Positions 3,021 through 51,299 of a DNA stretch of 64,000 nt are shown piece after piece. This DNA is from a virus (lineage: Duplodnaviria > Caudoviricetes). The stretch's first letter is position 1. Every line of letters starts with the position of its first letter. The stretch covers positions 224,001-288,000 of IMG/VR virus record IMGVR_UViG_3300024331_000007, one strand, 5' to 3'. The translations under genes and the position numbers were made by a program. Below the pieces are notes generated by a model. The model did no database searches. It had not been told where the DNA came from and saw nothing but the letters and a program-made list of their open reading frames with translations.

Positions 3021-3083
3021 TAAATACTGTTGGTCGCGGATAGCAGTCCCACCAACCCTATCGCTTTTGAGGAGCGCCAGCAC
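3021..3083 (+). promoter_or_regulatory. late promoter plus conserved structured leader, copy 1
   Basis: TAAATA-ct-GTTGGT-CGC-GGAT-agca-GTCC-C-ACCAAC-cctat-CGCT-tttgagg-AGCG-ccagcac-ATG. Confidence 0.75.
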
Positions 3084-3827
3084 ATGTCTATTTACCCTGA
3101 TAAACTTTCAGAACTTTTACCATCTTCAAAATATCTTCGCGCATATACCAAAATTTGCAAACTGGCTCAGGACCGAGCAAATACCCGTAAACAGGCAAAA
3201 TTACAATTTGGTTATGTGGAAGGTCATCATATTCTACCAAAATCTTTCAAATGTGGCGGCGAAAAAGATAAATCAAACTATGTGTATCTAACGGCTCGCG
3301 AGCATTTTATTTGCCACAAACTATTAGTTTTTGCAACAAAATCTACTAGATTTTATTATTCCGCATCTGCCGCCCTTGCTGGTTTTATGCAATCTTCTTC
3401 ATTTCACCAACGACCTATTCTAACTTCTCACAACTATCAATTTGTTAGGAAATGCATATCACTATCTAAAAAAGAAAAACAAACTGGAAGAAAGGTATCA
3501 GACGCTACTAAAATTAAGATGAGTTTGGCTCAATTAAAACGACACAGACTAAATCCACGAACAAAAGAGCAATGCGAAAATATATCAAAAGGGCGAACAG
3601 GTATCAAAGTATCCAAAGAAGGTTGCTTGGCAATATCTTTAGGCAAAATGGGGGCTATTCCTTGGAACAAAGGGACTAAAATGGATGATACAACCAAAAT
3701 GAAAATTAGCAAAAATCGAACAGGTATAAAACCCAAAAAGATCAAATGTCTACATTGTGATGTGATAGCCGCCCCAAATATGTTAGCGAGATTTCACAAC
3801 GATAGATGTAAATTAAGAAATTTGTGA
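3084..3827 (+). CDS. HNH homing endonuclease with NUMOD3-like repeats and C-terminal Cys/His ribbon
   Basis: EGHHILPKS...NYVYLTAREHFICHKLL, PWNKG, CLHC...H. Start ATG 3084 follows the SD-containing leader. Confidence 0.85.
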   Translation: MSIYPDKLSELLPSSKYLRAYTKICKLAQDRANTRKQAKLQFGYVEGHHILPKSFKCGGEKDKSNYVYLTAREHFICHKLLVFATKSTRFYYSASAALAGFMQSSSFHQRPILTSHNYQFVRKCISLSKKEKQTGRKVSDATKIKMSLAQLKRHRLNPRTKEQCENISKGRTGIKVSKEGCLAISLGKMGAIPWNKGTKMDDTTKMKISKNRTGIKPKKIKCLHCDVIAAPNMLARFHNDRCKLRNL

Positions 3828-4742
3828 AAGCTCTACCAGCGTGGCAGCAACCAGAATCTCTGGATCAGCGGCCATTGGAATCTGTACCATTCCTTTTCTA
3901 ATGATTAGAATTGCTGCGTCTTTCTGTTCGTTTGTAGTTCCCCAAAAATCCAGATTATTATAACAGAAGACATAAAACTCTTCCAATTCTTCCGCTCGAA
4001 TCTGGCTGCATATCAGCGCCCTCGCTTCTCTTACCTTTCCATTCTTAAATAACTCAACAGCGTCGATCTTGTAATCTCGCGTAGCGTTACTTAATTTGTC
4101 AGGTTTGGTGAGTTTTCCTTCAATGCAGTTCTGCTGACAAGTATTTATGCACTTACGTAGATCAGGCCAGCAGCCTCTGACGTAATCATCCAGTGTTTCC
4201 AACTCAAAATCTATATTCTCCGCAACCAAAATTTCAGCCATTCGTACTGTATATTCATCAATCGGAAGTTTATTTATTTGGATACTCTGGGTACGACTGT
4301 GTATAGGCGGAATGATCTTGTGTGGATTATTGCAGGTAAACATAAAGCGGCTTATCTGAGAATACTGCTCAATCACACCTTTCAGAGTATTTTGGGCATC
4401 CACTGTCAAACCATCAGCCTCATCCAACAGAATAATGCGTTGCTTTCCCCACGGAGTCAGGGCGGCAAAATTATCGATTTTATCGCGAATAATATCAATG
4501 CCGCGTTCGCGGCTGGCGTTTATATAGAGATAATCATATGGATCGATGCCAACTTCATTGACCAAAACTTCAGCCAAGGTAGTCTTACCTGTACCGGGTC
4601 CACCTGAAAAGAGAATATGTGGTATATCCTTAGTTGCAATCCACTTCTGAATTGTACCTTTTTGGTTCTCGTCTGTGAAGACATAGCCTTCCAGTGTTTT
4701 TGGTCTGTAGCGTTCCGTCCATAATGAGTTAGTTATTGCCAT
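3813..4742 (-). CDS. sliding-clamp loader AAA+ subunit (RFC / T4 gp44-like)
   Basis: WTERYRP, Walker A GGPGTGKT, Walker B LLDEAD, sensor motifs, PDLRKCIN. Confidence 0.95.
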   Translation of the reverse strand: MAITNSLWTERYRPKTLEGYVFTDENQKGTIQKWIATKDIPHILFSGGPGTGKTTLAEVLVNEVGIDPYDYLYINASRERGIDIIRDKIDNFAALTPWGKQRIILLDEADGLTVDAQNTLKGVIEQYSQISRFMFTCNNPHKIIPPIHSRTQSIQINKLPIDEYTVRMAEILVAENIDFELETLDDYVRGCWPDLRKCINTCQQNCIEGKLTKPDKLSNATRDYKIDAVELFKNGKVREARALICSQIRAEELEEFYVFCYNNLDFWGTTNEQKDAAILIIRKGMVQIPMAADPEILVAATLVELSQIS

Positions 4743-5548
4743 ATATTTTCCTTACCATCCAGCACCAGTATAACATCGTAGCCTTGCGCTCTACAAGCAG
4801 CTAATTTGGCCTTGTTTTTGTTCTCTAACAATTCATCTTCTCCATTCTTATTCCAAGTCCAAGACGACTTTACTTCATATATTGTGTTTCCGATTTGAAA
4901 ATCACTAATGTATAGGCGACGGCTATTATCGGTAGGGTCAACATACCAAATGCTTGGACCTCTCTTTACATTTTGTAGAAGCCAATCAAATCCAAATTTT
5001 TCTTCTAATTGGAATAGAAAGGAACATTCGTGGGTTCCTTGATAGGTTAGCGGGGAATCCTTATAATTCAAAATGGGACATTGGGTGCTGTTTTTCCAAG
5101 GACTATCCATCCAATGCTCTTTCATAATCTGAGCTAATTTTTCATAGTGTCCGTTTTTGATTCTAGTCTGCGTTCCCTTGATTTGAGAAGATTTGGTAAT
5201 ACCCAATCGAATACGAGTTTTCAAAGACTTTGAGGTTCTGTCGTCATGATTCAATAATGAAAATTCCTTTCGTTTTCCAGCACAAGAATTGAAATGAGGG
5301 GAGCAGCACTTTTTGCCATTCTTGAACAAATATTTTGCGATAGAATTACAACCAAACTCGCATAACTCCTCTGTTTCAATTGCGGTAGAGTATGGATTCT
5401 TATGTTTATGTGTTGCGATCTTTTTAGCTGGACATTTTAGGAAATGTGATGAGCAGCATTTGCTGCCCGATATAGAAAGGTAGTTAGCAGTTCTTGAACA
5501 GCCATAATCGCATAAATCAGTGGTGGAAATTTTCTGAAAGGTTTTCAT
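4733..5548 (-). CDS. putative homing endonuclease with N-terminal Cys-rich repeats and C-terminal PD-(D/E)XK-like domain
   Basis: Two C-[DE]-[YF]-G-C...KCCS..F..C repeats; YISDFQIGNTIYEVKS; preceded by TAAATA-N5-ATG. Confidence 0.65.
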   Translation of the reverse strand: MKTFQKISTTDLCDYGCSRTANYLSISGSKCCSSHFLKCPAKKIATHKHKNPYSTAIETEELCEFGCNSIAKYLFKNGKKCCSPHFNSCAGKRKEFSLLNHDDRTSKSLKTRIRLGITKSSQIKGTQTRIKNGHYEKLAQIMKEHWMDSPWKNSTQCPILNYKDSPLTYQGTHECSFLFQLEEKFGFDWLLQNVKRGPSIWYVDPTDNSRRLYISDFQIGNTIYEVKSSWTWNKNGEDELLENKNKAKLAACRAQGYDVILVLDGKENIWQ

Positions 5549-5592
5549 ACAACTATTTATGCATTGAGAAGTATTTTCTGTGCATAGTGTAT

Positions 5593-5850
5593 TTATTTTA
5601 TACCCATTTCCAGCGCCTTCAATAACGCATCTTGCTCAGTAGTCTCAATGATTTCCCTAATCTTTGCCCAGAATTGATCCTCAGCACCATCCATCAGAGG
5701 GTAAACATTCCATCCATTGTTGGGAGGATACATAACACCGTTTATATAATCTACAGGTTTATCTCCCCACATAACTAGTATTCCGTTTTCAACTTTACCG
5801 TATATCGGATTTTCGGAAACCTTTTGTAAACCCCATTCTTTGTTAGTCAT
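5593..5850 (-). CDS. hypothetical protein with family-B-like tail
   Basis: ORF track; ends EQDALLKALEMGIK. Confidence 0.55.
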   Translation of the reverse strand: MTNKEWGLQKVSENPIYGKVENGILVMWGDKPVDYINGVMYPPNNGWNVYPLMDGAEDQFWAKIREIIETTEQDALLKALEMGIK

Positions 5851-6149
5851 TAGATATTGCCGTTATCTCCAAAGTCATATGATTTGTCAGCCAGCATGGT
5901 GGTCCAAACATTACGCATTTTGTCTTCGGTTTCTTTCCACGATCCATTCAGCATAAACTCATGCGCCCACTGCTGTGTGTACTCGCAATACGGACAGCGA
6001 AGGCCATCGGGTGTGAGAACCAAAAGGCCTTCACCATCCAGATGATCTTTATCAGTTCGGCGTCCACTGCCGCACGTAAACGGATGGAACATACCTGAAT
6101 GCTGAAAGTCGTTGAATGATTTTATTTGGTCATCTGTGAATTTTGGCAT
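5850..6149 (-). CDS. Cys/His-containing hypothetical protein
   Basis: HPFTC...CPYC; probable start ATG 6149 overlaps the upstream TAA. Confidence 0.6.
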   Translation of the reverse strand: MPKFTDDQIKSFNDFQHSGMFHPFTCGSGRRTDKDHLDGEGLLVLTPDGLRCPYCEYTQQWAHEFMLNGSWKETEDKMRNVWTTMLADKSYDFGDNGNI

Positions 6150-6352
6150 TAGTTCTCCAGTAAGCGCATCATTTCTGCATTGACAGTTATTCTGGCATGT
6201 TGCCAAGCCTGAGCCTCGGTTTCCCAAGCTCCACTCAGGATAATAATACGACCTCGCGAATATCGCGCCGTAATATATTTGCCAATGGCCGCATCTAAAA
6301 CTGCGTCTGCATTGGGATAGGCGGCAAGGACGATTTCTTTGTCAACGATCAT
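6149..6352 (-). CDS. family-A protein, outlier copy
   Basis: DKEIVLAAYPNA...ETEAQAWQHA...MMRLLEN. Confidence 0.8.
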   Translation of the reverse strand: MIVDKEIVLAAYPNADAVLDAAIGKYITARYSRGRIIILSGAWETEAQAWQHARITVNAEMMRLLEN

Positions 6353-6412
6353 GACTCAGTATACGCCTTTTCTTTACTGGAGTAAATTGATTATTTGGTT
6401 AGAGGAAGCCAA

Positions 6413-6859
6413 TTATTTCAGACAATCTTGGTCACAGGAGGTGGAGTTTGGGTACACTGTTTCGGGTTTCTCTTTTTTCTCTTCGGCTTGATCTTTGTGA
6501 AGTCGCCACATTTGCCAGTACATATCAATTGCGTCCTCTATTGCTTGATGCGTATCAATTTGGCTATTGTCCTGAAGGGATATACCATATTCCCAGTTAT
6601 TATCTGAGACGCTTCCTGTTTCAATCTCCCAAACTGTTTTGTTTCGGATAGCACTATTACCTTTTCCGTCATAACGAGTACATTTGATTGTGACATTCTC
6701 GCAACCACCTGCATAATCACAGATGTGTTGAAGATTAGAATGTTTTGGCAGGAGTTGAGTTGCAGTATTTGGATGGATTTTATTTATTGTTGCACACCCA
6801 ACAAGAAGGCCCACACCAGAAATAAGTATCAGGACTGGGTTAATTCGAAATATGTTCAT
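6413..6859 (-). CDS. putative lipoprotein
   Basis: Hydrophobic signal ending in lipobox LVG-C. Confidence 0.55.
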   Translation of the reverse strand: MNIFRINPVLILISGVGLLVGCATINKIHPNTATQLLPKHSNLQHICDYAGGCENVTIKCTRYDGKGNSAIRNKTVWEIETGSVSDNNWEYGISLQDNSQIDTHQAIEDAIDMYWQMWRLHKDQAEEKKEKPETVYPNSTSCDQDCLK

Positions 6860-7056
6860 TATTCCTCCAACTTTTTAAGCATGCTATTATTAATTCGTTC
6901 TTTGGCGCCTTCCTATGCTCGTTCTGGCGTTTGATATACAAAGCTCAAATCCTTGAACTCAGGCCATTTGTCTCCCATTGAAATATAATGGCCCCAACTT
7001 TCTGATCTGAGCTTGGCCGTTGGATAGATTGAAAGAACAAATTCCTTATCGGTCAT
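6859..7056 (-). pseudogene. family-A member with in-frame TAG at the invariant Trp
   Basis: MTDKEFVLSIYPTA...TPERA*EGAKERINNSMLKKLEE; TAG at 6913-6915. Confidence 0.8.
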
Positions 7057-7212
7057 CATCAACCAGAATAATAATTCCAGTTATGTTTTGGGCGGCAAGC
7101 ATTAGATTTCCAATTGCCTCAGCTTTATTCTTGCCTGTCTCATAGACTGTTTCATCATCTGCCGACCAAGCCTTCCATTTACCAGCTTTGATGTACTTAA
7201 CAAGAATGTCCA

Positions 7213-7626
7213 TTACTTTGCTCCGATTGGGCCAACCATTGCGCCCATCTCAGGGTTTGGATTCTCTTTACAATACAGAAGAATAGCCTTTGGATCAATA
7301 CGACGAACAACTGTTTCATTGCGTGGAATGTTTGGATCAATCTCAGAAAGATCGATGCCTCGACTCCAGCGACCATGCTCCACCAAAATCCAGTATCCCG
7401 GCCTCAAATCTGTTGTATTTTCGGGACCAACAGCATAAACTTTGGCCCATCGAGGATGAATACCGCGGTCTGTTTTATCATCATCCATCAGGATAATACC
7501 TGAAGTTGTCTTCTGTTCACCGAAGTACATGTCAAAGGCCAAAACGTCTTTGTGCAGCGGCAGAATAATTGGATCAATAATTTCTGTTGTCATAGTTTCC
7601 TTAGTTTGGGCAGTAAAATTCAACAT
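7213..7626 (-). CDS. groES: co-chaperonin GroES-like
   Basis: ILPLHKDVL...TTSGIIL...KVYAVGP...LRPGYWILV; probable start 7593. Confidence 0.85.
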   Translation of the reverse strand: MLNFTAQTKETMTTEIIDPIILPLHKDVLAFDMYFGEQKTTSGIILMDDDKTDRGIHPRWAKVYAVGPENTTDLRPGYWILVEHGRWSRGIDLSEIDPNIPRNETVVRRIDPKAILLYCKENPNPEMGAMVGPIGAK

Positions 7627-7708
7627 AGTTTACTGCATCCTGAAATTTATTATACATTCTATTCTTGTCCTTCCCGTTTTCCCAATCAATTACATGAGCA
7701 GTATATGT

Positions 7709-7894
7709 CTACCCATTTTGTGAACGAGTTACATCACCACAACCAAATCCGTTATAATCCTGCCACAAAACATAATCTTCACTCAACCAGACTTTATGAG
7801 TTGCGGCAGCTTTGTTAGCTGTTGATTCAGGTACATTTATTGTGCGCACACATCCAACCAAACCAATCAATAACAAATATGGTATAAATTTCAT
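7709..7894 (-). CDS. putative small lipoprotein
   Basis: MKFIPYLLLIGLVG-C lipobox. Confidence 0.55.
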   Translation of the reverse strand: MKFIPYLLLIGLVGCVRTINVPESTANKAAATHKVWLSEDYVLWQDYNGFGCGDVTRSQNG

Positions 7895-14095: not shown

Positions 14096-14113
14096 CCGAC
14101 CTCCAAACGAAGA

Positions 14114-14181
14114 TAAATATCTATACAGTTCGCGAACCTCGTGAGTTCCAACTGCTCTAATGCCTTGGAGGGCAATCAGCT
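14114..14181 (+). promoter_or_regulatory. late promoter plus conserved structured leader, copy 2
   Basis: TAAATA-tctata-CAGTT-CGC-GAAC-ctcgtga-GTTC-C-AACTG-ctctaat-GCC-ttggag-GGC-aatcagct-ATG. Confidence 0.75.
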
Positions 14182-14925
14182 ATGCGTATTTATGATACAG
14201 CCTCATTCATCGAAAAGGCCAGAATCGTACATGATTCGAGTTACGATTATTCCAAAGTAAAATATTTGAAATCATCACAGAAGGTAAAGATCATTTGCCC
14301 GAAGCATGGTGTCTTTATGCAAACCCCCAACAATCATTTGGCAGGTCAGGGTTGCATGCAATGTGGTTTTGTGACTCGTTCGTCTGTTCATTTTTCTAAT
14401 ACTGAATCATTTATAGAATCTGCCAAGATTCCGCATAATAAGAAATACAAATATGACCAAACAATTTATCTTCATAGTGAAAAACCAGTTGTAATTTTAT
14501 GCCCAAAACACGGAGAATTTTCGCAAAAACCTTTTAAGCATTTGCAAGGACAAGGTTGTCCTAAATGCCGAAATAGCAAAGGTCAAGATGCTATAGAACG
14601 ATTTTTGTTGGATTCTAATGTCAAGTATAAGACAGAAGTAAGATTTGATGATTGTAAAAATAAACGATCCTTACCATTCGATTTCGCAATTTATAAAGGA
14701 AATGCATTGATTGGTTTGATAGAATTTCAAGGCCAACAACATTTTCTAGCAGCGCCTCATTTTGGTGGCGTAAAGCAACTCGTTTACATACAGAAAAATG
14801 ACCAGATCAAGAGAGATTATTGTATATCCAAAGATATTCCACTACTGGAGATAAAATTTACCAATCTTAGAACTATCAAAAAGATACTTTCAAATTTTCT
14901 AATTAGATGCCAATATCAATATTGA
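14182..14925 (+). CDS. endonuclease with two CPxHGxFxQxPxxHLxGxGCxxC zinc modules and a Vsr/PD-(D/E)XK-like C-terminal domain
   Basis: Repeated CPKHG modules; LPFDF...LIEFQGQQHF...KNDQIKRDYC. Confidence 0.75.
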   Translation: MRIYDTASFIEKARIVHDSSYDYSKVKYLKSSQKVKIICPKHGVFMQTPNNHLAGQGCMQCGFVTRSSVHFSNTESFIESAKIPHNKKYKYDQTIYLHSEKPVVILCPKHGEFSQKPFKHLQGQGCPKCRNSKGQDAIERFLLDSNVKYKTEVRFDDCKNKRSLPFDFAIYKGNALIGLIEFQGQQHFLAAPHFGGVKQLVYIQKNDQIKRDYCISKDIPLLEIKFTNLRTIKKILSNFLIRCQYQY

Positions 14926-19400: not shown

Positions 19401-19931
19401 GCCAGCCTCTTTGTTTGGATAGATGAAACCAGAATCGTACAGGACAACAGGGCTTACATAGCCTGTAATGTCGCCTGTCTCTGGGTTCAAAACAAGTTGG
19501 TCTGGAAGACTACCAGAAACGATAGTCATATTCGTCGGCCAGTTTGGTGTGGCAGTTAGTGGGGCAACTGTGGAATACAAATATTGACCATCTGGAAAAA
19601 TGCCCAGATCGGAATTAGGAAACAAATATGAAGGTTCTTGATCTAATACATTAAAAGAGAAGGCTCTATCCGAAATATTTCCTACATCAGTAGATGCTCT
19701 TATTGTAAAGGTAGACAAACCAGTTATTGCATCAACAGAAGTAGACCCCCAAATTGATGGAAAAGGTAGACTTGGTTGATTAAAGGGGCCAGTGATTGTT
19801 AAGCCAATAGGAAGATTTCCTGCTATAATAGAAAAAGAGTTAGCTCCAGAACATGAAATAGCTACATTGCAAGGTTCACCTTTTGCAATGTTTCCTAATG
19901 ATCCAGCGGGGGTTGTCCAGACGATAGCCAT
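16476..19931 (-). CDS. large baseplate wedge-like structural protein with Ig-like repeats
   Basis: MAIVWTTPAGSLG start (TAAATA-N5-ATG at 19931); repeated GxLPxGLxLxxxGxIxG Ig-type motifs; LPSWMRDIQ...LGFVPA...CKPG segment. Confidence 0.7.
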   Translation of the reverse strand: MAIVWTTPAGSLGNIAKGEPCNVAISCSGANSFSIIAGNLPIGLTITGPFNQPSLPFPSIWGSTSVDAITGLSTFTIRASTDVGNISDRAFSFNVLDQEPSYLFPNSDLGIFPDGQYLYSTVAPLTATPNWPTNMTIVSGSLPDQLVLNPETGDITGYVSPVVLYDSGFIYPNKEAGKPNLPHSANSRTYDFTVQYDAQNTADFSLTIQRQDLFNNANANVSGPVYHDPIFLDATFGLNVCSSDFANINLGVVDGDSILYQFRTEDFEDNTLNYLLINGDAIPGNVTINPITGWLSGYINRDLTLPTPYEFQVIAYKSANVFTNSHLQTTAFCTLTVENPADNSIVWDSQNNLGNLFAGVPSSLDVHASIIEPFTAPSIQTATANCTLKLVGVEIINGGNAFANGSIFTVPGGISANSANIIVSNVSASGTITEVTIDPTIVQEYTKLPDGLTVIWTNSTGNANALNAIFGLDFGVDQVNILTRGGFYDTATVGFEPAGESVTATAEARIFNGTLSNVIVDTTGHNYQAIPKVTILGRSRITPTNPIKYELTGGTIPAGCQLLSNGLIVGLPSSQYFSMDQTTIVDQNQTIFDRTFDFTVTASIGQNRPIDFTETDLSGANVVTENFQTLIQVTRDFTLNLKTTIPNSITAAPPTNLSLEFLLGDTDMNTLFTPLNDESIVSNDDIFRQDDFYFGIAQHVRMLLAYGISPEIPDTIQEAIERYFHNKKYLFNGLKWARSSSEGYEVIYIEPLDEFTNTSYQTFSGPVSYNTPAGPKNAFPATLPNMIHQLNTHLNGFDYNFLPSWMRDIQPDGQILGFVPAIPLLYCKPGTGKRIMFYLQQYYNTIGPAVETIDAITDRLVWNAGYSQNWDPRPRVTLVAKNITAQISAVTVSGSNANYAVIETNTGNAVPAGTQMVIQGMTNANNNGKFPVVSSTPVSFLVNNANGISETTSAGYAYSLNLTANSSFTINPAAPIAFAPDLTPRTYSYTGNIVVNLPSNIADISNVAAIINSYDIQGIQAGIGADNELYIQNITGSPFILYDGNNTPLANLGLLPTGNAFANVNVVIVAGWWSSELTQFDQGVPDDDLTTESSFDLTTENCIVIITEGTTNFTDIGTFFDTSDVFLNDDDGAIYIKFPNSSFINPPVVGV

Positions 19932-19953
19932 ATCAATATTTAGCAATCGCTGA

Positions 19954-20019
19954 TAAATACAAATGCCAACCGCGAGTCTGAACACTCCGTTGGCTCTAAT
20001 GTCAGAGAGGACATCAGCT
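19954..20019 (+). promoter_or_regulatory. late promoter plus conserved structured leader, copy 3
   Basis: TAAATA-caaat-GCCAAC-CGC-GAGT-ctgaac-ACTC-C-GTTGGC-tctaat-GTC-agagag-GAC-atcagct-ATG. Confidence 0.75.
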
Positions 20020-20670
20020 ATGAATATTTATATCGCTCCCTTTTCTCAACTACTGATATTCTATGTGTATTCCTATTTGAGAGAAGACGGAACTCCATAC
20101 TATATAGGTAAGGGCATTCGCGATAGGGCATTTAATCCACGACATCGCCTAAAACCAAAAGACCATACCCGTATCCAAATAATTTCTGAAAATATGAATG
20201 AAGCTGATGCATTTCAATTAGAAATGTTACTTATTTATTTTTATGGTAGGTCTGACTTGAATAATGGTATACTCCATAATCTCACGAATGGCGGTGATGG
20301 GTTGTTTGGTCATGTACAAACCGACGAAACTAAAAAGAAAAGATTGCCGTCTCTAATAGGAAATAAGAGGGCCTTAGGTAATCATCACAGTGAAGAAACA
20401 AAGAGAAAGCAACGAGTATCAAAAATAGGTGTCAAAAATCCATTCTTTAATAAAACTCATACTAAAGAGGTTATAAAGAAAATTTCACTAGCTAATAAAG
20501 GTAAAATTGTTTCTAAAGAAACTCGCCTAAGGATGTCGGAAGCACAAAAGAAAGTTCCTAGAAAAGGAACAGTTTCGCCAAACAAGGGAAAAACTATGAC
20601 CTCTGCTCAAAAATTGAAAATCAGTTTGGCTAAGAAAGGAACAATCCCTTGGAATAAGGCAAGACGCTGA
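20020..20670 (+). CDS. GIY-YIG homing endonuclease with NUMOD3-like repeats
   Basis: FYVYSYLREDGTPYYIGKG...R...E...LHNLTNGG; HSEET, HTKEV, PWNK. Confidence 0.85.
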   Translation: MNIYIAPFSQLLIFYVYSYLREDGTPYYIGKGIRDRAFNPRHRLKPKDHTRIQIISENMNEADAFQLEMLLIYFYGRSDLNNGILHNLTNGGDGLFGHVQTDETKKKRLPSLIGNKRALGNHHSEETKRKQRVSKIGVKNPFFNKTHTKEVIKKISLANKGKIVSKETRLRMSEAQKKVPRKGTVSPNKGKTMTSAQKLKISLAKKGTIPWNKARR

Positions 20671-30413: not shown

Positions 30414-30632
30414 GACTCAAACTGCCTCATGATCTTGAAGTTTAATTCTTTCTTCAATTTCACCCAAACGCCATCTTCTGTTAAAGACCGTTGTAATTTG
30501 TCGTAATCTCCGAGTCCAAGTGATCCAACATATCGGACACCATCAGAAAATTTCAACGAAACAACTCTCGCATCTGGACACAACTCTTGCACGAATTGTT
30601 GGTCTTCGCTCATTAGAAACGACTTTCTATGC

Positions 30633-30702
30633 TAAATACTTATGCAGTTCGCGAGTCTCGTGAACTCCAACTGCCCTAACGCCATTTCGAGGCAATCAGC
30701 AT
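30633..30702 (+). promoter_or_regulatory. late promoter plus conserved structured leader, copy 4
   Basis: TAAATA-cttat-GCAGTT-CGC-GAGT-ctcgtga-ACTC-C-AACTGC-cctaac-GCC-atttcga-GGC-aatcagcat-ATG. Confidence 0.75.
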
Positions 30703-31317
30703 ATGAATACTTATCCCAATAATAACACATTTTACGTTTACGCATATCTTCGCCAAAATGGAACACCATATTACATAGGTAAAGGAAACGGAGATAGGGC
30801 ATTTCGTAATTATCGTAAACGATGTGTTCGTCCTCCAAAAGATAAATCTCGTGTAGTCATCCTTTTTGAGAACTTATTTGAACCAGCTTCCTTTCAAATA
30901 GAGATGCTATTTATTCGCATGTTTGGTCGTATTGATCTTGGAACTGGGTGCCTTCATAATAGAACCAGCGGCGGTGAAGGCATCAGTGGTTATCGTAGAA
31001 GTCCAGAATCAATCGCTAAACAAATTGAGACTATGAAGCGAAACAACAAGAAACAAAGTAATGCAACCATTCTGAAAAGAATAAACACTAGAAAACTGAA
31101 TGGAACCTTGAATCCTAATACATTAGATTCACTGCATAAAACAAAAATCAAACGAATTGCCAATGGATCGTATAAGCGCACACCAGAAGCTATCGCTAAA
31201 CAGATTGCTACGCAAAAACGAAATGGCACTAATAAAAGGACTCCAGAATCTATCGCCAAAGGATTAGCAACAAAATTAGCCAGAAAATCAATAACGATAG
31301 ACAATCCTACCCATTGA
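30703..31317 (+). CDS. GIY-YIG homing endonuclease with C-terminal RTPESIAK-type repeats
   Basis: FYVYAYLRQNGTPYYIGKG...R...E...LHNRTSGGEG. Confidence 0.85.
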   Translation: MNTYPNNNTFYVYAYLRQNGTPYYIGKGNGDRAFRNYRKRCVRPPKDKSRVVILFENLFEPASFQIEMLFIRMFGRIDLGTGCLHNRTSGGEGISGYRRSPESIAKQIETMKRNNKKQSNATILKRINTRKLNGTLNPNTLDSLHKTKIKRIANGSYKRTPEAIAKQIATQKRNGTNKRTPESIAKGLATKLARKSITIDNPTH

Positions 31318-45984: not shown

Positions 45985-46950
45985 ATGAGGATTTCAGAAA
46001 TTATCAATGAAGGTGGTCATGTTTTTGCCGAAAAAACCACTGCAATCAAGCGAGAGGATATCGCGCCGACTTTAGCAGCCTACTTTAAGGAGCTAAAGCA
46101 ATTATTTCCTAAGAAGGCGTCCATTTTTTCCACGGAATACTTCATCCCACTCGGTTCTGTTGGTAAAAAGCCAGTATCAGGCGATATAGATTTGGGTATT
46201 GATGCAAGTACAATTCTTGATAAGACCATGAGCGATACATCTGTTGCAGCATGGAATATTGATCCGAAGCAACTCCAAAAAGAGTTTGAAATTTTACAAA
46301 AGAGAGCTAGATCGTCGTCTCCAGAACAACTCCGAATGAAAGCTTTCCTTAAACTTCTAACCAAATTTCTGAATGCACGATCAAATAACATTGAGTCCAG
46401 TGAAAAGAAAGTAACAACGGGAAACATGTTTACGCTATTCCCACAAGTTACTGCATCTGGCAAAGGAAACGATAAGGGAGTTCAAATCGATTGGATGATT
46501 GGTAATTTAAATTGGCTGAAGTTTTCCTATTATTCTTCTGAATATCCCGAAGGTTCCAATGTAAAGGGGCTGCATCGCACTCAACTGTTGCTCTCTGCTT
46601 TTCAGACGGCTAATCTAGCATTTGATCACGTATCTGGTGTTAAGGACAAGGAGACTGGGAAGATTTTGGCAACCGATCCAGATACAGCATTAAAGGCTCT
46701 TGGAAAACGGTTGGGTTTTGCTATTCCAATTGAGGATGTTGAGAATTTCTATAAGCTGAACGATCTACTTGCAAAAAACATGACACCTCAACAGTATCGT
46801 GAAACTCTTGATAGATACTACAGAACATTGGATTCAACTCGCGCTGATATTCCAGATAATCTTCAAAAGGATTGGCTGACACGAAAGGACGCGCTCAACC
46901 TAACAGGGGCGTTTCTTCCTGATACTTCAAATCTACAGAGATACTTATGA
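45985..46950 (+). CDS. Pol-beta-superfamily nucleotidyltransferase-like protein 1
   Basis: LGSVGKKPVSGDIDL (GS...DxD) plus a downstream VQIDWM acidic strand; TAAATA at 45964-45969. Confidence 0.75.
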   Translation: MRISEIINEGGHVFAEKTTAIKREDIAPTLAAYFKELKQLFPKKASIFSTEYFIPLGSVGKKPVSGDIDLGIDASTILDKTMSDTSVAAWNIDPKQLQKEFEILQKRARSSSPEQLRMKAFLKLLTKFLNARSNNIESSEKKVTTGNMFTLFPQVTASGKGNDKGVQIDWMIGNLNWLKFSYYSSEYPEGSNVKGLHRTQLLLSAFQTANLAFDHVSGVKDKETGKILATDPDTALKALGKRLGFAIPIEDVENFYKLNDLLAKNMTPQQYRETLDRYYRTLDSTRADIPDNLQKDWLTRKDALNLTGAFLPDTSNLQRYL

Positions 46951-47870
46951 TTATAGAATCAGGCGTAACAGGTGCGGAACGAATTAGAAATAGAGCCGAC
47001 TTTGCTCAGTTTGTGAAGTCGTATACACAGGTAATTTCCAAATTTCCCGGTTTTGTGAGCCTGCGCCCTTCTGGAAGCTATAATTCTGACATGAACAAAA
47101 AAGATTTTGGTGACATTGATCTTATTGTTCATATTGAATCTGATAAGCCCAAGCCTGTTGTGAAGAAAGAACTGCAACGATTCTTTGATGCTATGCCCCA
47201 GACTGTTATTGTTCCGTTTACCTCTCCAAAGCATATTGGAAAGAGAACATACAATGCAGGAGAACTTGTCTCTGTTCGTTATCACGATAGCAAGCTGGGT
47301 TACAGTGTTCAAATCGATAATATTGTTGCTCTTACGGCTCTTGAGTCCGATTTTAAGGAACGATTCCTAAATTTTCGGGCAGAAGAACAGGGTATATTGA
47401 TGGGTTTGGTTAAAATTGCGGCCATTGAAACCGATCCAGCTATATTGTTTAAGAAATTAGGCATCAGAAATCCGGGTCCATTAGGACCAAGACAAGAATA
47501 CGAATTTAATCTCAGTGGAACAGATTTGCAACTCCGCAAAGTAACATACGAACCAAACTCGTACAAAGAAATAAAACGAGAAATACTCTGGCGTACAACT
47601 GACTTCAATGCTGTGGCCAAGTTGCTGTATCAGTACGATATTACCGCGAACTTTGATAGTTTAATTGCTCAGGCAAAAGCCAAAGCGAAGAATCCTCGCA
47701 GTAAGTTTAGACTACCGGGTGTTTTTAATTCAATGATTACTGTAAAGAGCGGCGAGGTTGGAACCCAAAAGGGACAAGGAAAAATCGACGCTCAAAACAA
47801 ACTCGCAGATACTTTTGAATCGCATTTCGGTCTTATCTATCGCGCAATTGTTCTCTGTGAAAAATTCTAG
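46947..47870 (+). CDS. Pol-beta-superfamily nucleotidyltransferase-like protein 2
   Basis: PSGSYNS...DFGDIDLIV plus VQIDNI; ATGA overlap with protein 1. Confidence 0.75.
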   Translation: MIIESGVTGAERIRNRADFAQFVKSYTQVISKFPGFVSLRPSGSYNSDMNKKDFGDIDLIVHIESDKPKPVVKKELQRFFDAMPQTVIVPFTSPKHIGKRTYNAGELVSVRYHDSKLGYSVQIDNIVALTALESDFKERFLNFRAEEQGILMGLVKIAAIETDPAILFKKLGIRNPGPLGPRQEYEFNLSGTDLQLRKVTYEPNSYKEIKREILWRTTDFNAVAKLLYQYDITANFDSLIAQAKAKAKNPRSKFRLPGVFNSMITVKSGEVGTQKGQGKIDAQNKLADTFESHFGLIYRAIVLCEKF

Positions 47871-47899
47871 TTGCGCTGCATCAACATAACTGATACTCT
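47871..47899 (+). promoter_or_regulatory. possible sigma70-type promoter
   Basis: TTGCGC-17nt-TACTCT, 8 nt before ATG 47908. Confidence 0.4.
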
Positions 47900-47907
47900 T
47901 ATAGAGT

Positions 47908-48759
47908 ATGAATACTAAACTATATCAGATTTGTTATCTTCCAGAACATTTTTCCGCAGTGGGCGCACGGTTTGACTTTTGGGACAACACAGTCAATGTG
48001 AAACCTGAATTGCGCGAGTATCCAATTTTCGAACGAGCTTATACTTCTAAACTAACCAAAGGTCTTGATTATTGGGGTTTGGTCAGTCCTAAATTTGAAA
48101 AGAAAGCTAATATCACTGGAGGCCAATTTTTGGATTGGGTTGAAACGGTCCAAAAGACCCATCCATGTGATGTATATTTTGTCAATCCAGTTCCCATCGT
48201 GGAGTCAATCTTCCCCGGTACAATCCAGCATGGTGAAAATTGTCATCCCGGTCTTCTGGGCTTATTGCAGCGAAATATTTCAGAAGCCGCAGGAATTGAT
48301 TTAGCATCAATGTACATGGATTGCAACACGTTCTCAATGTGCAACTACTTTATAGGTAATCGTAAATTTTGGGACTCATACATAAACTTCGTCCAAAAAT
48401 TCCTTGATTCTGTTTCAAAAAATCCAGAAGATGACGAATTAATGTATAGAAAGAGTGCCAACTACGGACCCAATAAAACATTACCCTATTATACATTTGC
48501 TGTTGAGCGCCTGTTCAGCATCTTCCTTAATCTGGAACGTAGAAAACAAGGTGGAATAACAGCTACGCACTACACATATTCGCGCGAAGCCCTACTCACG
48601 AAAACAGGTTTGCCTGAGTCTATCATATCAACCCTTATTGCTCTTACAGACATAAAGCAGATGGCAGTTTCGGCTGGATACCCCGGAATGATGCAACATT
48701 GGGCATTTTTTAGAAACCAGCTATGTCAACAGAATCAATATCTGTTTTTGATGGAATAA
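47908..48759 (+). CDS. hypothetical protein, possibly glycosyltransferase-like
   Basis: LYQICY...DN...ELREYP...WGLVSPKF...DVYFVNP...CNYFIG...ERLFS pattern; function inferred only. Confidence 0.45.
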   Translation: MNTKLYQICYLPEHFSAVGARFDFWDNTVNVKPELREYPIFERAYTSKLTKGLDYWGLVSPKFEKKANITGGQFLDWVETVQKTHPCDVYFVNPVPIVESIFPGTIQHGENCHPGLLGLLQRNISEAAGIDLASMYMDCNTFSMCNYFIGNRKFWDSYINFVQKFLDSVSKNPEDDELMYRKSANYGPNKTLPYYTFAVERLFSIFLNLERRKQGGITATHYTYSREALLTKTGLPESIISTLIALTDIKQMAVSAGYPGMMQHWAFFRNQLCQQNQYLFLME

Positions 48760-48767
48760 ATATTGGT

Positions 48768-49463
48768 GTGAACTACGAAAAGATATATCGTCAACTTATA
48801 GATAATCGAAAAAGAGTAAAACCGTCTGGATACAAAGAAAAGCATCATATCCTTCCAAAATGTATGGGAGGAAAAAACAGTAACAGCAATTTGGTGTTTT
48901 TGACTGCAAGAGAACATTATGTCTGTCATAAACTACTTACTAAATTTGTTGATGACAAGTTTAAAGCAAAAATGATATACGCTTGGCATATGATGACGGT
49001 TGATCGAGGGAACAGAAAAGTAAAAATAACTAGTAACGACTACGCAATATTACGAGAACAGCATACATTAGTGGTATCAAACAGAAAAATTTCAAAACAA
49101 ACTAGGAAGAAGATGTCGGCGTGGCAATTAGGAAAAGTTCCTTGGAATAAAGGAAAGACTGGTATTTATTCAGCAGAAACCATTAAGAAAATGTCCGCAA
49201 AAAGAACTGGAACTGTCTCCTCAAAACATACAAAAAAGAAAATTTCTTTAGCTATATCCGGTAGTAATAATCCTATGTTTGGTAAATCTCATACGATAGA
49301 ATCTAAGAAAAAGATGACTGAGGCTAAAATTGGAGCAAATCATCCAAAATTTGGTAAAAAATTCCAATGGGTATTTAATCCTACGACCAATTCTATGAAA
49401 TCTATTATTCACGAAGACTTAGAAAAATATTTACTCAATGGCTTTAGAAAAGGAAGAAAATAA
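48768..49463 (+). CDS. HNH homing endonuclease with NUMOD3-like repeats
   Basis: EKHHILPKCMGG...NLVFLTAREHYVCHKLL. Start reassigned to GTG 48768 (TAAATA 48757-48762, then N5). Confidence 0.85.
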   Translation: MNYEKIYRQLIDNRKRVKPSGYKEKHHILPKCMGGKNSNSNLVFLTAREHYVCHKLLTKFVDDKFKAKMIYAWHMMTVDRGNRKVKITSNDYAILREQHTLVVSNRKISKQTRKKMSAWQLGKVPWNKGKTGIYSAETIKKMSAKRTGTVSSKHTKKKISLAISGSNNPMFGKSHTIESKKKMTEAKIGANHPKFGKKFQWVFNPTTNSMKSIIHEDLEKYLLNGFRKGRK

Positions 49464-50194
49464 TGAAAACATTGTGGCTGATTTCGAGCGCCATCCATAC
49501 GCGCCACGGAATCTTTTCTGCCGAACAGCGCCTTGAACAGACTATAGCCACACTTGAGTCAATCAAGGCTGTAGACCCATCGGCTCGTATTCTTATTGTG
49601 GAAAGTAGCGCAGAAGCATCCATAACAGATGAAGAGTCTGACAAACTGAAGCCATACATCGAAGGTCTATTGAACTTTAATCCAGATGTTCAGGTTCAGG
49701 ATATCTACAAGATGGCTGACAAAAACTGGGATGTGGCTAAGAACCTTACAGAATTGGTAGTTTTTGGTAAGGCGTTGGACTTTCTCATTCGTCAGCAACC
49801 AGACCTGTTGGAAGGTATTGATCGCGTATTCAAAATAAGCGGTCGATACCGTCTTAACGAGAACTTCGACATTTCCAAGCATATCGATCCTAAACAAAAT
49901 GAAAATTACATTTTCGCTGCTAGACGCCCGAGCCAATTCCCAGCAATTGTTACGGATGGTTTGTCCCAGCAAGTAATGAGCAGACTTTGGTCATGGCCCC
50001 CACAGAAAACAGCCCTCATTTTCTTCAGATATAATTTGATGATAGAAGACTTCATTGGAACAATGGCCCAAAAGAAGTACCGCGATATTGAGCATCTTCT
50101 ATTCAAATACTTCGGCGGTCCTTATATGGTCGAACTGCCTGTAATTGGCGTTGAAGGTGAAATCGGTCCAAACGGTGCGGCAGTTAAGGACTAA
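49463..50194 (+). CDS. hypothetical protein, possibly glycosyltransferase-like
   Basis: ISSAI...RLEQT..TLESI...ILIVESS...RVFKISGRY.L pattern; function inferred only. Confidence 0.45.
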   Translation: MKTLWLISSAIHTRHGIFSAEQRLEQTIATLESIKAVDPSARILIVESSAEASITDEESDKLKPYIEGLLNFNPDVQVQDIYKMADKNWDVAKNLTELVVFGKALDFLIRQQPDLLEGIDRVFKISGRYRLNENFDISKHIDPKQNENYIFAARRPSQFPAIVTDGLSQQVMSRLWSWPPQKTALIFFRYNLMIEDFIGTMAQKKYRDIEHLLFKYFGGPYMVELPVIGVEGEIGPNGAAVKD

Positions 50195-50209
50195 TCAAAG
50201 GAAAACATT

Positions 50210-50539
50210 ATGAATCATACCAGCGAAGAAATGATGGCGATAGCGAAGCCAAATTGTTTGATCTGTGTGCCACTAATCAAACCGTGGATAGGCATTGTTA
50301 TAAAGTATGCCGAAGATGACTATGACGAAGCTATCTTCTACCCAAACCCAGATCAGGTAAGAATTTCATCTGGAACAAGAATTGTTAGCAGGTTGTTATC
50401 TGAAGCTGACTCAGATGAAATTAAGAGCGATTGCCAAAAGGCCGGTTCAAACAAAGTTCTATCAGTTGATACTGACTGTTCAACCATAGCCATTTTATCT
50501 TGGGACGAATGGGTTGATTATATGAAAAAGCCAGCTTAA
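50210..50539 (+). CDS. hypothetical protein
   Basis: ORF with AAGGA SD, ends in the terminator. Confidence 0.55.
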   Translation: MNHTSEEMMAIAKPNCLICVPLIKPWIGIVIKYAEDDYDEAIFYPNPDQVRISSGTRIVSRLLSEADSDEIKSDCQKAGSNKVLSVDTDCSTIAILSWDEWVDYMKKPA

Positions 50540-50551
50540 CCGCTGGCTTTT
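50526..50551. terminator. bidirectional intrinsic terminator between convergent genes
   Basis: AAAAGCCAGC-ttaacc-GCTGGCTTTT perfect inverted repeat. Confidence 0.8.
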
Positions 50552-51234
50552 CTGCCTTTCACATATCCTTGTTGTTCATAATCTGACACGTCTTCGGGAC
50601 GCACAAACTTGCATTTCATAGTTTCTGGATGATAAAGCCAAATGTTTCCGCGCTTTTTAGCCCCGATTCGTTTGCGCGATTCTTCCGTATGAGTTTTGCC
50701 TAGCCAAATTTGATTCCCTTTCTTGAATTTAGACATTTTCTGCCTGAACTCTTCAGATCGTGTAGGATATTTCTTACCTGTTCGAACCAACGACATTTTT
50801 CGTTTACACTCGTCTGACAAAGTTCTACCCTTGAGAGCATTCGAAAGATTTTCCCTGTGCTCTTTTGAGAAGTTCCCACCAAAATTTGGATTGTTCTCGC
50901 CCTTCCATTGTTCTGAACGCCATTTCTTTGTTTCATCTGATTGAAGATGACCTTTTGAACCATCTCCACCATCCGTATGATTTAGCAGGATTCCAGTTCC
51001 TTTGTCGCGGCGTCCATACAGATGAATCAGAAGCATTTCGGCTTGAAAAGCGTCAGCCTCAGTCATGCTTTCGGATATGAATGCGATGTTTTTGGTGTCT
51101 TTAGGGACATGAACTCCTACGTGATGAGAGAATGCTCGTTTTCCAAGCCCTTTTCCGATATAATAGGGTGTTCCCGCGTTGCCGTGAACGGAGTCTCGCT
51201 GGCGTAGGTAGGAATAGACGTAATAAATATTCAT
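50536..51234 (-). CDS. GIY-YIG homing endonuclease with NUMOD3-like repeats
   Basis: YYVYSYLR...PYYIGKG...R...E...LLNHTDGGDG; start ATG 51234 after the leader. Confidence 0.85.
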   Translation of the reverse strand: MNIYYVYSYLRQRDSVHGNAGTPYYIGKGLGKRAFSHHVGVHVPKDTKNIAFISESMTEADAFQAEMLLIHLYGRRDKGTGILLNHTDGGDGSKGHLQSDETKKWRSEQWKGENNPNFGGNFSKEHRENLSNALKGRTLSDECKRKMSLVRTGKKYPTRSEEFRQKMSKFKKGNQIWLGKTHTEESRKRIGAKKRGNIWLYHPETMKCKFVRPEDVSDYEQQGYVKGRKASG

Positions 51235-51299
51235 GTGCTGTTGCTCCACGAAGCGATAGGGCAGTTGGGTCTTCACACTGCGAACTGCGATAGTATTTA
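51235..51299 (-). promoter_or_regulatory. late promoter plus conserved structured leader, copy 5
   Basis: TAAATA-ctatc-GCAGTT-CGC-aGT-gtgaag-ACc-C-AACTGC-cctat-cGCT-tcgtgg-AGC-aacagcac-ATG. Confidence 0.7.

Follow-up and report, generated by a model that had tools for sequence, protein, structure and literature searches.

The window analysed here, a stretch of 64,000 nucleotides (positions 224,001 to 288,000 of the IMG/VR virus record IMGVR_UViG_3300024331_000007) from a soil phage genome of 359,890 bp, contains five copies of a module of about 80 bp, each at the 5' end of a free-standing homing endonuclease gene (HEG). A first-pass annotation had described five structured leaders here, and all five were recovered exactly, in position and in general architecture. 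Copy 1 (3021-3094, plus strand) starts with a late-promoter box TAAATA in the sense direction (3021-3026), followed by a hairpin region (3029-3056), a hairpin over the Shine-Dalgarno (SD) sequence that runs from CUA to CAG (3058-3080), CAGC (3078-3081), the ATG (3084-3086) and finally an inner hexamer TATTTA (3089-3094), which reads TAAATA on the minus strand. Its gene (3084-3827, plus strand, MSIY...), which contains NUMOD3 and is antisense to its neighbours, is of the HNH type as annotated, according to the motif GHHILPKS...N...H. Copy 2 (14114-14192, plus strand; sense box 14114-14119, ATG 14182-14184, TATTTA 14187-14192) precedes an endonuclease gene (14182-14925, plus strand, MRIY...) with matches to phrog_559, DUF4379 and DUF723; its two zinc-ribbon repeats and its Vsr-like-looking C-terminal domain, of the IEFQGQQHF type, are compatible with the annotated Vsr-like identity but do not prove it.

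The remaining three genes carry the motif YVY..YIGKG..R..E..N, and their assignment to the GIY-YIG family holds. Copy 3 (19954-20030, plus strand; sense box 19954-19959, ATG 20020-20022, TATTTA 20025-20030) precedes the gene at 20020-20670 (plus strand, MNIY...YVYSYLR..GTPYYIGKG, with NUMOD3 repeats), and copy 4 (30633-30713, plus strand; sense box 30633-30638, ATG 30703-30705) precedes the gene at 30703-31317 (plus strand, MNTY...). The inner box of copy 4 is the variant TACTTA (30708-30713), that is TAAGTA on the minus strand. Copy 5 lies on the minus strand (51224-51299; sense box 51299-51294, ATG 51234-51232, TATTTA 51229-51224, or TAAATA on the plus strand), and its gene (50536-51234, minus strand, MNIYYVYSYLR..., with NUMOD3) runs against the plus-strand late genes around it.

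As the annotation had suggested, the element could be captured in a covariance model. The model built from the five window copies scored them at 70-80 bits, and the next-best match in the 64-kb window reached 11 bits (E=1). With the same model we detected 16 copies in the whole genome of this phage (51-80 bits) and, in IMG/VR, hundreds of further copies, invariably immediately 5' of free-standing HEGs, which belong to at least four unrelated nuclease families. In a set of 80 unrelated IMG/VR loci, 24 had the module directly at the 5' end of the endonuclease gene (E<=1e-6), and three more gave weaker matches. A DNA pattern scan of viral sequences in IMG/VR returned 80 loci, all matched by the covariance model; among the 80 loci returned by the same pattern from bacterial and archaeal genomes, taken as a negative control, none was matched. 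No Rfam family matched the element, in agreement with the annotation, and we found no cultured phage that carries it. The shared leader of the five unrelated HEGs is real, and it is very common among giant T4-like phages that have not been cultured.

The description of the leader as a conserved covarying structure was borne out. Among the 16 copies of this genome, 15 of the 18 pairs change on both sides, and in the set of 96 copies covariation extends to 13 of 16 pairs, with double changes in 205 cells; the observed score was reached by none of 500 shuffles in either case, although the cell counts exceed the number of independent events because the copies are phylogenetically related. Some details had to be corrected. 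The reported invariant CGC bulge consists of two single-base bulges on either side of a real pair, as its G pairs with the C reported as single and covaries to A-U. P3 is longer than first described and reaches CUA/CAG, and the conserved block does not finish at the ATG, since it runs on to a TATTTA(Y) hexamer over codons 2-4. The option of a small ribozyme found no support, with no match to an Rfam ribozyme and no conserved unpaired block resembling a catalytic core besides the bulges. The element occurs with unrelated nuclease families and travels separately from the nuclease body, as had been claimed: the copies at 254633 and 181623 of this genome have leaders that are ~97% identical in front of proteins that are 42% identical, and those at 324619 (GIY-YIG) and 227021 (HNH) have an identical P1 and an identical 5' half.

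The annotation had placed a single late box upstream of each gene; it overlooked a second late-promoter box, directed backwards across the element. This box reads TATTTA(T) on the HEG strand, where it is (A)TAAATA in reverse complement, and it lies 4-7 nt (mode 5) after CAGC in ~98% of 127 unique copies. Of these copies, 116 have TATTTA unchanged and 9 have a one-base variant; the hexamer belonged neither to the covariance model nor to the search pattern. The distances from CAGC to ATG and from ATG to the hexamer compensate each other, and three reading frames hold the hexamer (ATG NNT ATT TAY; ATG TAT TTA; ATG ATA TTT A), so that the N-termini are forced to M-x-I-Y, M-Y-L or M-I-F. Paralogues of the same families that lack the module do not start with M-x-I-Y, among them an HNH-family gene in the window (48723-49463, plus strand) that is co-oriented with its neighbours. 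The inner box is also exact in all 19 copies with a co-oriented 5' neighbour, where no divergent gene is there to be served, which argues that it is intrinsic to the HEG.

TAAATA is depleted genome-wide, yet it is enriched 0-40 nt upstream of ORFs (107 in the correct orientation vs 46 of the reversed hexamer). In 22 ORFs of this genome (>= 100 aa) the ATG lies exactly 5 nt after TAAATA, with one each at 2-4 and 6-8 nt. From these leaderless genes we infer a +1 at the sixth nucleotide after the box, and both transcripts of the module would accordingly begin on a purine at the helix ends. In short-spacer copies, including copy 1, this rule would place the sense start within the 5' arm of the long hairpin, yet all 6 pairs are kept. 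An A-rich sense spacer is present in the IMG/VR copies and absent from the 16 copies of this genome.

The base pairs also indicate on which strand the fold has been selected. Read on the HEG strand, the helix cells include 97 A·C or C·A and 5 G·U, and the long hairpin has A·C at 9 of its 11 positions. Since A·C cells on the HEG strand are G·U wobbles on the opposite one, 99.0% of the helix cells pair in the antisense reading. One antisense G·U is invariant (96 out of 96 sequences), one pair is U·G in 41, U-A in 36 and C-G in 15, and another shows 12 G·U. Folding of the same 56-nt segment, which does not depend on the alignment, gave a mean MFE of -16.7 kcal/mol for the antisense strand vs -12.4 for the sense strand; the antisense fold was the stabler in 112 of 120 copies, by 4.3 kcal/mol, and in each of the five copies of the window. 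The wobbles and the folding energies both indicate that the selected structure belongs to the opposite strand and not primarily to the HEG mRNA leader, where the annotation had placed it.

For copy 1, the predicted antisense RNA spans 3018-3083 (minus strand), from a putative start at G 3083, the sixth nucleotide after the minus-strand box; it would form two hairpins and then a UAUUUAU tail, with an MFE of -15.4 kcal/mol vs -11.7 for the sense UTR. The corresponding predictions are 14111-14181 (minus strand, start A 14181; -17.6 vs -14.0) for copy 2, 19951-20019 (minus strand, start A 20019; -23.2 vs -17.1) for copy 3, 30630-30702 (minus strand, start A 30702; -20.7 vs -15.7) for copy 4, and 51235-51302 (plus strand, start G 51235; -19.1 vs -9.9) for copy 5. 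The antisense promoter of copy 4 may be weaker, given its variant box TAAGTA. Next to copy 3, just past its predicted antisense transcript, lies a separate late box of the leaderless type that belongs to the neighbouring gene of 1151 aa (TAAATAttgatATG, ATG at 19931). A simple terminator scan did not call the presumed 3' site of the antisense RNA, and the U-tract in this genome is barely more than UAUUUAU.

In the interpretation that we favour, the module would be a portable expression unit of free-standing HEGs, set between two face-to-face T4-type late promoters. From the outer box, (A)TAAATA, the HEG mRNA would begin with the base that opens the long hairpin; from the inner box, over codons 2-4, an opposite-strand RNA would begin at the G opposite CAGC or at a purine 1-2 nt earlier. 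This RNA would fold into hairpin A, with the invariant G·U and with CUCC in a loop that is complementary to the SD, and hairpin B (11 bp, two bulged G), followed by a U-rich tail that is the complement of the outer promoter, and it would be the exact complement of the entire HEG 5' UTR. We give an even chance to this reading, in which a cis-antisense RNA of ~60-70 nt with two hairpins is complementary to the 5' UTR of the HEG, the SD included. By analogy with RNA-OUT/RNA-IN of IS10 and with SymR/symE, it would most likely throttle the nuclease: it would pair with the mRNA leader via loop-loop contacts and occlude the SD, which together with promoter collision would keep nuclease synthesis low. 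The firing of the inner box, the 3' end of the RNA and the repressive effect are what we infer here, and repression as the direction of regulation is drawn purely from analogy. Antisense RNAs that protect the mRNA are a known alternative outcome (PMC3113571), and by analogy the HEG mRNA could be protected by its antisense RNA instead of repressed.

The inner box could also work outwards, as a promoter that, with the two hairpins as a stabilising 5' leader, serves a host gene divergent from the inverted HEG cassette and compensates for the insertion, any effect on the HEG being incidental. This idea, which is compatible with an antisense RNA, fits the gene order, as 12 of the 16 module genes of this genome have a divergent 5' neighbour while 15 of 16 paralogues without the module have a co-oriented one, and a wider set of 119 cases includes 70 with a divergent ORF, whose start lies a median of 47 nt past the element. 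Eight of the 12 divergent cases in this genome have no separate late box before the neighbour ORF, and promoters that serve neighbouring genes are known from endonuclease genes of T4 (PMC2988022). We still regard it as improbable: the other 4 neighbours have their own late box between element and ATG, the inner box stays exact in the co-oriented contexts, and a generic 5' stabiliser does not need a conserved two-hairpin architecture with bulges and an invariant G·U beside unrelated genes. More doubtful still is a T4-type translational hairpin in the HEG mRNA, which is the explanation of Dassa et al. and akin to the translational switch among the options of the first-pass annotation; here TAAATA and TATTTA would pair on read-in transcripts and close a three-way junction over SD and AUG, while late transcripts, without the 5' arm, would be translated. 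The two boxes do form a perfect inverted repeat of 6-7 bp around SD and AUG, the same logic has been published for I-TevI, segB and Aeh1 mobE (PMC2988022), and some copies, such as that of locus L190, lie in co-oriented 'fractured gene' contexts. On the HEG strand, however, the internal helices have A·C mismatches, one of them invariant, and at the base of hairpin A pairing would be only ~68%; ~60% of the copies have a divergent 5' neighbour, so that no co-directional upstream transcript is expected; the box variants TACTTA, TATATA, TAACAA and TCAACA are uncompensated; and an all-A/U helix of 6 bp closing a multiloop is weak.

The conserved features could otherwise act on DNA, as hairpins in single-stranded DNA or a cruciform, for instance during recombination-dependent replication, or the conserved bases (GCG bulges, UUAG/GCUG) could be the operator of one phage protein that all these HEGs share. 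Unpaired bases are indeed strongly conserved beside freely covarying stems, and DNA hairpins tolerate G·T too. Repeated 80-bp modules could also favour modular shuffling in the fashion of PeSL cassettes, which Arbiol and colleagues reportedly described in 2010 as promoting it. We hold these two possibilities, taken jointly, to be as doubtful as the sense-strand hairpin, because a role in DNA alone leaves unexplained why the distance of both boxes from the helix ends is exactly that from promoter to start. For the operator we found no candidate protein, and autorepression of the I-TevI type uses the own site of each nuclease and is therefore not shareable by unrelated families.

The proposed antisense control has its closest parallel in IS10/Tn10, a selfish DNA-cutting element controlled by the pair RNA-OUT/RNA-IN. 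There, two promoters face each other at the 5' end of the gene, the antisense one within the first part of the ORF. The antisense RNA (~70 nt) has a stable fold with bulged stems, and the whole 5' end of the mRNA, with the RBS, is complementary to it. The IS10 gene encodes a transposase, whereas the genes here are homing endonucleases of a lytic phage; both promoters here are T4-type late boxes, the predicted overlap is the whole 5' UTR (~56 nt), both RNAs would form two hairpins, and the module is common to unrelated nuclease families. In SymR/symE and other type I toxin-antitoxin pairs, a nuclease-like toxic gene likewise has a cis-antisense RNA that begins close to its start codon, a few nucleotides away, and covers its SD, but these are chromosomal bacterial systems under SOS control and are not known to have sequence or structure in common with the element. 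In T4-like phages, a late promoter adjoins the genes of I-TevI, I-TevII, I-TevIII, segB and Aeh1 mobE, and RNA structure around the SD confines expression to late times (PMC2988022). That hairpin forms on the sense strand, only on read-through transcripts, of HEGs co-oriented with their neighbours (PMC2988022), whereas the genes studied here are mostly inverted, with a fold selected on the opposite strand. In the T4-like cyanophage S-PM2, the antisense RNA CfrI, as PMC2984593 describes it, likewise overlaps a homing endonuclease gene at its 5' end, but it has ~225 nt and links that gene to psbA (Millard et al. 2010, via PMC2984593), and the S-PM2 genome gave no match to the covariance model of the element.

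Finally, for free-standing HEGs, GIY-YIG and Vsr-like, from metagenomic phage-like DNA with 'fractured genes', Dassa et al. 2009 described 5' UTRs that contain hairpins, TATAAATA and a pair of conserved motifs complementary to each other (PMC2677866). As here, a late-promoter box and a conserved hairpin occupy the HEG 5' UTR, and at our locus L190 the terminase gene is split by such an endonuclease with the element; by its description, theirs is very likely the same motif, and the novelty of the element is partly pre-empted. Their reading was a sense-strand translational hairpin, in analogy with Aeh1 mobE, while the putative antisense promoter, the strand asymmetry, the covariance model and the census are given here and absent there (PMC2677866).

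Five stretches of the window that the first-pass annotation had singled out as structured leaders of homing endonuclease genes (at 3021, 14114, 19954 and 30633 on the plus strand, and at 51299 on the minus strand) do lie at those positions and do share one architecture, in which the late box TAAATA is followed by a long hairpin, an SD hairpin, CAGC and ATG. RNAalifold on the five copies gave 18 pairs, of which 12 show compensatory changes. A covariance model built from the same copies (R1) scored them at 70–80 bits, and nothing else in the 64-kb window scored above 11 bits. The R1 scan recovered 16 copies in the whole genome (51–80 bits), each ending in the ATG of an ORF of 106–248 aa. In these 16 copies pairing was kept in 95.4% of the cells, both sides changed in 15 out of 18 pairs, 0 of 500 shuffles reached the observed covariation score and sliding the partner columns by 1–3 destroyed the pairing. 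The conserved, covarying structure proposed by the annotation was thus upheld by compensatory changes in 5, 16 and 96 copies: in the largest alignment (A7; 96 unique copies in antisense orientation) 99.0% of the cells pair, covariation is seen in 13 out of 16 pairs (205 double-change cells) and again 0/500 shuffles reach this level. Rfam 15 gave 0 matches in the window at gathering thresholds on either strand, and in the 16 genome copies at E≤1 the element was unmatched, an unrelated tmRNA being the sole match. No Rfam family, ribozymes included, matches the element, and the idea of a small ribozyme was dropped, as nothing supports it.

The genome (359,890 bp, 41% G+C; the window covers positions 224001–288000) comes from a soil metagenome, and the public sequencing runs listed for this DNA are soil-metagenome DNA only. 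Its major capsid protein shares 72% identity with the Vibrio phage 2.275.O protein and ~68% with the proteins from GAP32, CBB, BF and PA5oct; the carrier is therefore a jumbo, T4-distant myovirus.

The module is phage-specific and widespread. The ten GIY-YIG genes behind genome copies have hundreds of relatives in IMG/VR; among the 80 relative loci kept, the module was found directly upstream of the gene in 27, with E≤1e-6 in 24 cases. When 30 whole IMG/VR records were scanned, 22 held 1–4 copies each; CheckV completeness suggests that most of these records are fragments of ~350 kb phages and a few of ~170–180 kb phages. A gene-independent DNA pattern (TAAATA-N8-14-TCGCGG-N18-26-CTCTAA) matched at least 120 viral stretches, and R1 confirmed 80/80 viral pattern loci among the matches listed (88 matches). 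The same pattern was present in at least 120 stretches of 596 Gb of bacterial and archaeal genomes; 0 of the 80 loci examined there matched the covariance model, and all 80 were rejected as chance matches. This 80-bp module has 16 copies in a single genome and hundreds across uncultured jumbo phages. No match was detected in 14 cultured phage genomes scanned whole with R1 and/or a second covariance model of the module (R2); the scan covered the cyanophages S-SRM01, B23, RN05-S, S-N03, ACG-2014f and S-PM2 and the capsid-related jumbo phages Vibrio 2.275.O, Sinorhizobium Phosso, Erwinia Kaldavass, PA5oct, GAP32, CBB, XbC2 and XaC1. Among GenBank phages, nothing relevant was returned by megablast of the region or by sensitive blastn of two leader variants, and tblastn with a second endonuclease family found only two Vibrio phages.

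The 119 pooled downstream proteins formed 10 sequence clusters, comprising mainly GIY-YIG proteins of the 'YVYAYLR..GTPYYIGKG' type (63/119), a second family of the 'YLYVKTHNxTGLKYLGxT' type (25/119) and HNH proteins of the 'GHHIxPxS' (16/119) and 'EIHHxDG' (9/119) types. The gene of window copy 2 has a zinc ribbon and a Vsr-like-looking architecture; Pfam and PDB sequence searches gave no name to its nuclease domain. The leaders at window 30633–30705 (genome 254633) and genome 181623–181695 differ at 2 out of 73 positions and their proteins are 42% identical, which suggests recent gene conversion or within-genome exchange of the module; likewise, the copies at genome positions 324619 (GIY-YIG) and 227021 (HNH) have the same outer stem and 5' half. 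The module thus travels independently of the gene body, and the independence from nuclease family that the annotation had claimed extends to at least four unrelated families. Of the ~32 endonuclease-like genes in the genome, half have the module and ~16 are paralogues without it (e.g. window 48723–49463, plus strand). A search for a conserved element at the 3' ends of these genes found none.

A T4-type late promoter is a TATAAATA-like box ahead of a late gene, and transcription starts at a fixed distance of a few bases downstream of it. In this genome TAAATA was under-represented overall (256 occurrences vs ~474 expected), yet it lay 0–40 nt upstream of 107 ORFs in the correct orientation vs 46 for the reversed hexamer, and the largest structural genes were among the ORFs so preceded. 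TAAATA is thus the predicted late promoter of this genome. In 22 ORFs of at least 100 aa the ATG followed TAAATA at exactly 5 nt, with one ORF each at 2–4 and 6–8 nt; window examples are the minus-strand ATGs at 548, 5548, 19931 and 45897. These ORFs look like leaderless late mRNAs, and their number points to a large class of such mRNAs in this phage. Because of their fixed 5-nt spacing, +1 was placed at the sixth base after the box. By this rule, the endonuclease mRNA would begin with the base that opens the long hairpin, a G or an A in almost every copy.

The architecture described by the annotation stood up to the ATG, but the conserved block does not end there. Beyond the start codon we found a second hexamer, TATTTA, which lay outside both the covariance model and the search pattern and is exact in 116 out of 127 unique copies (TACTTA in 5, TATATA in 4). 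The next base is T in 98/125 copies, and TATTTA(T) is the reverse complement of (A)TAAATA; a promoter-like box on the opposite strand thus sits, at the level of sequence, inside the 5' end of the ORF and faces the gene's own promoter. The hexamer lies 4–7 nt from CAGC (mode 5) and is read in three frames, as ATG NNT ATT TAY (M-x-I-Y), ATG TAT TTA (M-Y-L) or ATG ATA TTT A (M-I-F). Copies in which the hexamer directly adjoins the start codon never have the ATG immediately beside CAGC (0 out of 64, vs 16/46). Module-less paralogues start otherwise (e.g. MNNFYVY, MATTAKLFYVY, MRRLSTEEF); as the hexamer also spans different frames, the constraint on these N-terminal codons acts on nucleotides and not on protein. 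A transcript from the inner box would, by the same rule, begin with the G that faces the final C of CAGC, or with a purine lying 1–2 nt before it.

Along the predicted antisense RNA, the box ATAAATA is followed by 5 nt that include the complement of the start codon, then by +1 at the G of GCUG. Hairpin A, the antisense counterpart of the SD hairpin, has the base CUGAU.../...AUUAG with an invariant G·U, and its loop contains CUCC, the complement of the SD (GGAG). A single base separates it from hairpin B, the counterpart of the long hairpin, which comprises 6 bp, a G-C pair with two bulged G on the 3' side and another 4–5 bp. The tail that follows, A(C/U)UUUUAUUUAU, is complementary to the late box and spacer of the endonuclease gene itself; it has ~7 U in 12 in the wider set, this genome having a weaker tract. 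A simple terminator scan around copies 2 and 3 did not call the element, as the bulged stem falls outside the rules of the scan. In the 96-copy alignment the predicted antisense RNA has both a conserved stable fold of its own and complementarity to the RBS. A likeness of CUCUAA to boxA was set aside as too short, and YUNR motifs in the loops were set aside as inconsistent.

The annotation had taken the fold as a feature of the endonuclease leader. A classical T4-type hairpin would act in the sense mRNA, with an inhibitory helix that includes the late promoter; the mutual complementarity of TAAATA and TATTTA would agree with that, but these two hexamers show no compensatory change, and ~60% of the copies have no co-directional upstream gene. 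Wobble counts and folding energies favour the antisense strand. An A·C on one strand reads as G·U on the other, and on the endonuclease strand the non-Watson-Crick helix cells were 97 A·C or C·A vs 5 G·U, spread over 9 of the 11 long-hairpin pairs and the SD hairpin; these cell counts are inflated by kinship among the copies, though the asymmetry points the same way at many positions and across many lineages. At the base of hairpin A, the first three pairs among the 96 sequences were C-G in 94, U-A in 95 and G·U in 96/96, the fourth was A-U in 73, G·U in 12 and U-A in 8, and the fifth was U·G in 41, U-A in 36 and C-G in 15, the last series being a classic wobble-mediated path. Read in sense, the same base has an invariant mismatch (A·C, 96/96) within the SD hairpin and a second mismatch in 43% of the sequences. 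The alignment-free MFE of the 56-nt segment averaged -16.7 kcal/mol for antisense vs -12.4 kcal/mol for sense, and antisense was the more stable in 112 out of 120 copies (mean gap 4.3 kcal/mol) and in 5/5 window copies. In short-spacer copies (e.g. copy 1) the sense transcript would begin within the long hairpin's 5' arm, yet all six pairs are kept, so the full stem would be usable only by the antisense transcript. These observations place the selected fold on the antisense strand, on which point the annotation was wrong, and the classical sense hairpin appears highly improbable. They also carry a caution for RNA-motif discovery, since covariation alone is silent on the strand.

We propose that two face-to-face late promoters ~68 bp apart would produce the mRNA leader and a perfectly complementary antisense RNA, the latter more stably folded. 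Each RNA would form two hairpins whose loops complement those of the other RNA, SD and anti-SD making up one such pair of loops. By analogy with IS10 and SymR, the antisense RNA would base-pair with the leader and mask the SD, with lowered endonuclease synthesis as the most likely outcome, and head-on polymerase traffic would limit synthesis further. From the firing of the inner box onward all steps are conditional, and we consider this cis-antisense control to be evenly balanced between true and false. The inner box might instead serve as promoter of the flanking gene, which would be compatible with antisense control. The 5' neighbour was divergent for 12 out of 16 module-bearing genes of this genome, and 15 of the 16 module-less paralogues were co-oriented; in the wider set the neighbour was divergent in 70/119 cases, starting at a median of 47 nt beyond the element, and clearly co-oriented in 19. 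The inner box was nevertheless exact in 19/19 of these co-oriented contexts, which argues that it serves the cassette and not the neighbour, and 4 out of the 12 divergent neighbours in this genome have a late box of their own between the element and their ATG. A neighbour promoter is unlikely, and readings of the module as a DNA-level signal or a protein operator are, in our judgement, very doubtful. Under cis-antisense control, the orientation bias would be explained if an outward-firing cassette is best tolerated when inverted to its neighbours.

In IS10 RNA-IN/RNA-OUT and SymR/symE, an antisense RNA pairs with the leader and blocks the SD. The geometry predicted for the module from its sequence (facing promoters, a folded antisense RNA and complementarity to the RBS) is that of IS10 RNA-OUT and SymR. 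To our knowledge, how phages tame the selfish homing endonucleases that they carry has been described for just a few T4 and Aeh1 genes, in every case by a sense-strand hairpin or by autorepression, and we know of few phage antisense RNAs. Under the T4 paradigm, the sense hairpin is formed only on read-through transcripts (PMC2988022); the hairpins of I-TevI and mobE act on the sense strand, unlike the module, which fails that strand test. In metagenomic fractured genes, Dassa et al. 2009 described hairpins, TATAAATA and a pair of conserved motifs complementary to each other, all lying upstream of free-standing endonucleases of the GIY-YIG and Vsr-like kinds, and read the hairpins by analogy with mobE (PMC2677866). 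Their layout, a hairpin and late box in the 5' UTR of a gene-splitting free-standing endonuclease, is matched by one of our loci (L190:3694-6388), where a module-bearing GIY-YIG gene divides the gene for the terminase large subunit into two ORFs, one for the N-terminal ATPase and one for the C-terminal nuclease; the order is Terminase_6N ORF, module, GIY-YIG gene and Terminase_6C ORF, the last overlapping the 3' end of the endonuclease gene. Because of this layout and the published description, the hairpins of Dassa et al. are very likely this element. The end of the ATPase ORF (...REIGCFNGETQINLKD...DDK) looks like a short N-intein. CfrI of S-PM2 is an antisense RNA over the start of an endonuclease gene and offers a precedent (PMC2984593); kinship with it was rejected, as the S-PM2 genome (NC_006820) gave nothing at E≤1 with model R2.

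The sequence statistics of the module point to antisense RNA control across unrelated nuclease families. We tentatively propose, with slightly more doubt than belief, an unrecognised and very abundant family of small cis-antisense RNAs in phages: a self-limiting portable cassette of two colliding late promoters with a mirror-image two-hairpin fold, which unrelated homing endonucleases would have acquired repeatedly, whose antisense promoter in codons 2–4 would dictate M-x-I-Y in at least four unrelated families, and which would let genes settle inverted in phage operons. If true, it would be a major new class among phage antisense RNAs, the odd shared M-x-I-Y N-termini would be a promoter footprint in coding sequence, the hairpins beside split-intein 'fractured genes' would gain a new interpretation, and the module would offer a small, naturally occurring genetic part in which a bidirectional late promoter comes with its own attenuator.

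We also noted three loci of this genome beside the intact copies. At 103335–104303 (L015) the module looks like a decaying copy, with the sense box now TAACAA and an ORF of only 106 aa, after which GIY-YIG-like sequence continues in another frame. At 326250–326330 an HNH-family gene starts with MNIY (ATGAATATCTAT) and has a late box 23 nt upstream and no hairpins; this may be a module stripped of its hairpins by deletion. Finally, a permuted (two-piece) tmRNA gene (RF04321; 87 bits vs a gathering score of 47) lies outside the window at genome positions ~146234–146453 (L007:2302-2521, minus strand), just 3' of a module-bearing endonuclease gene; a partial match to the betaproteobacterial tmRNA model was also seen, and the tmRNA is a possible clue to the host.
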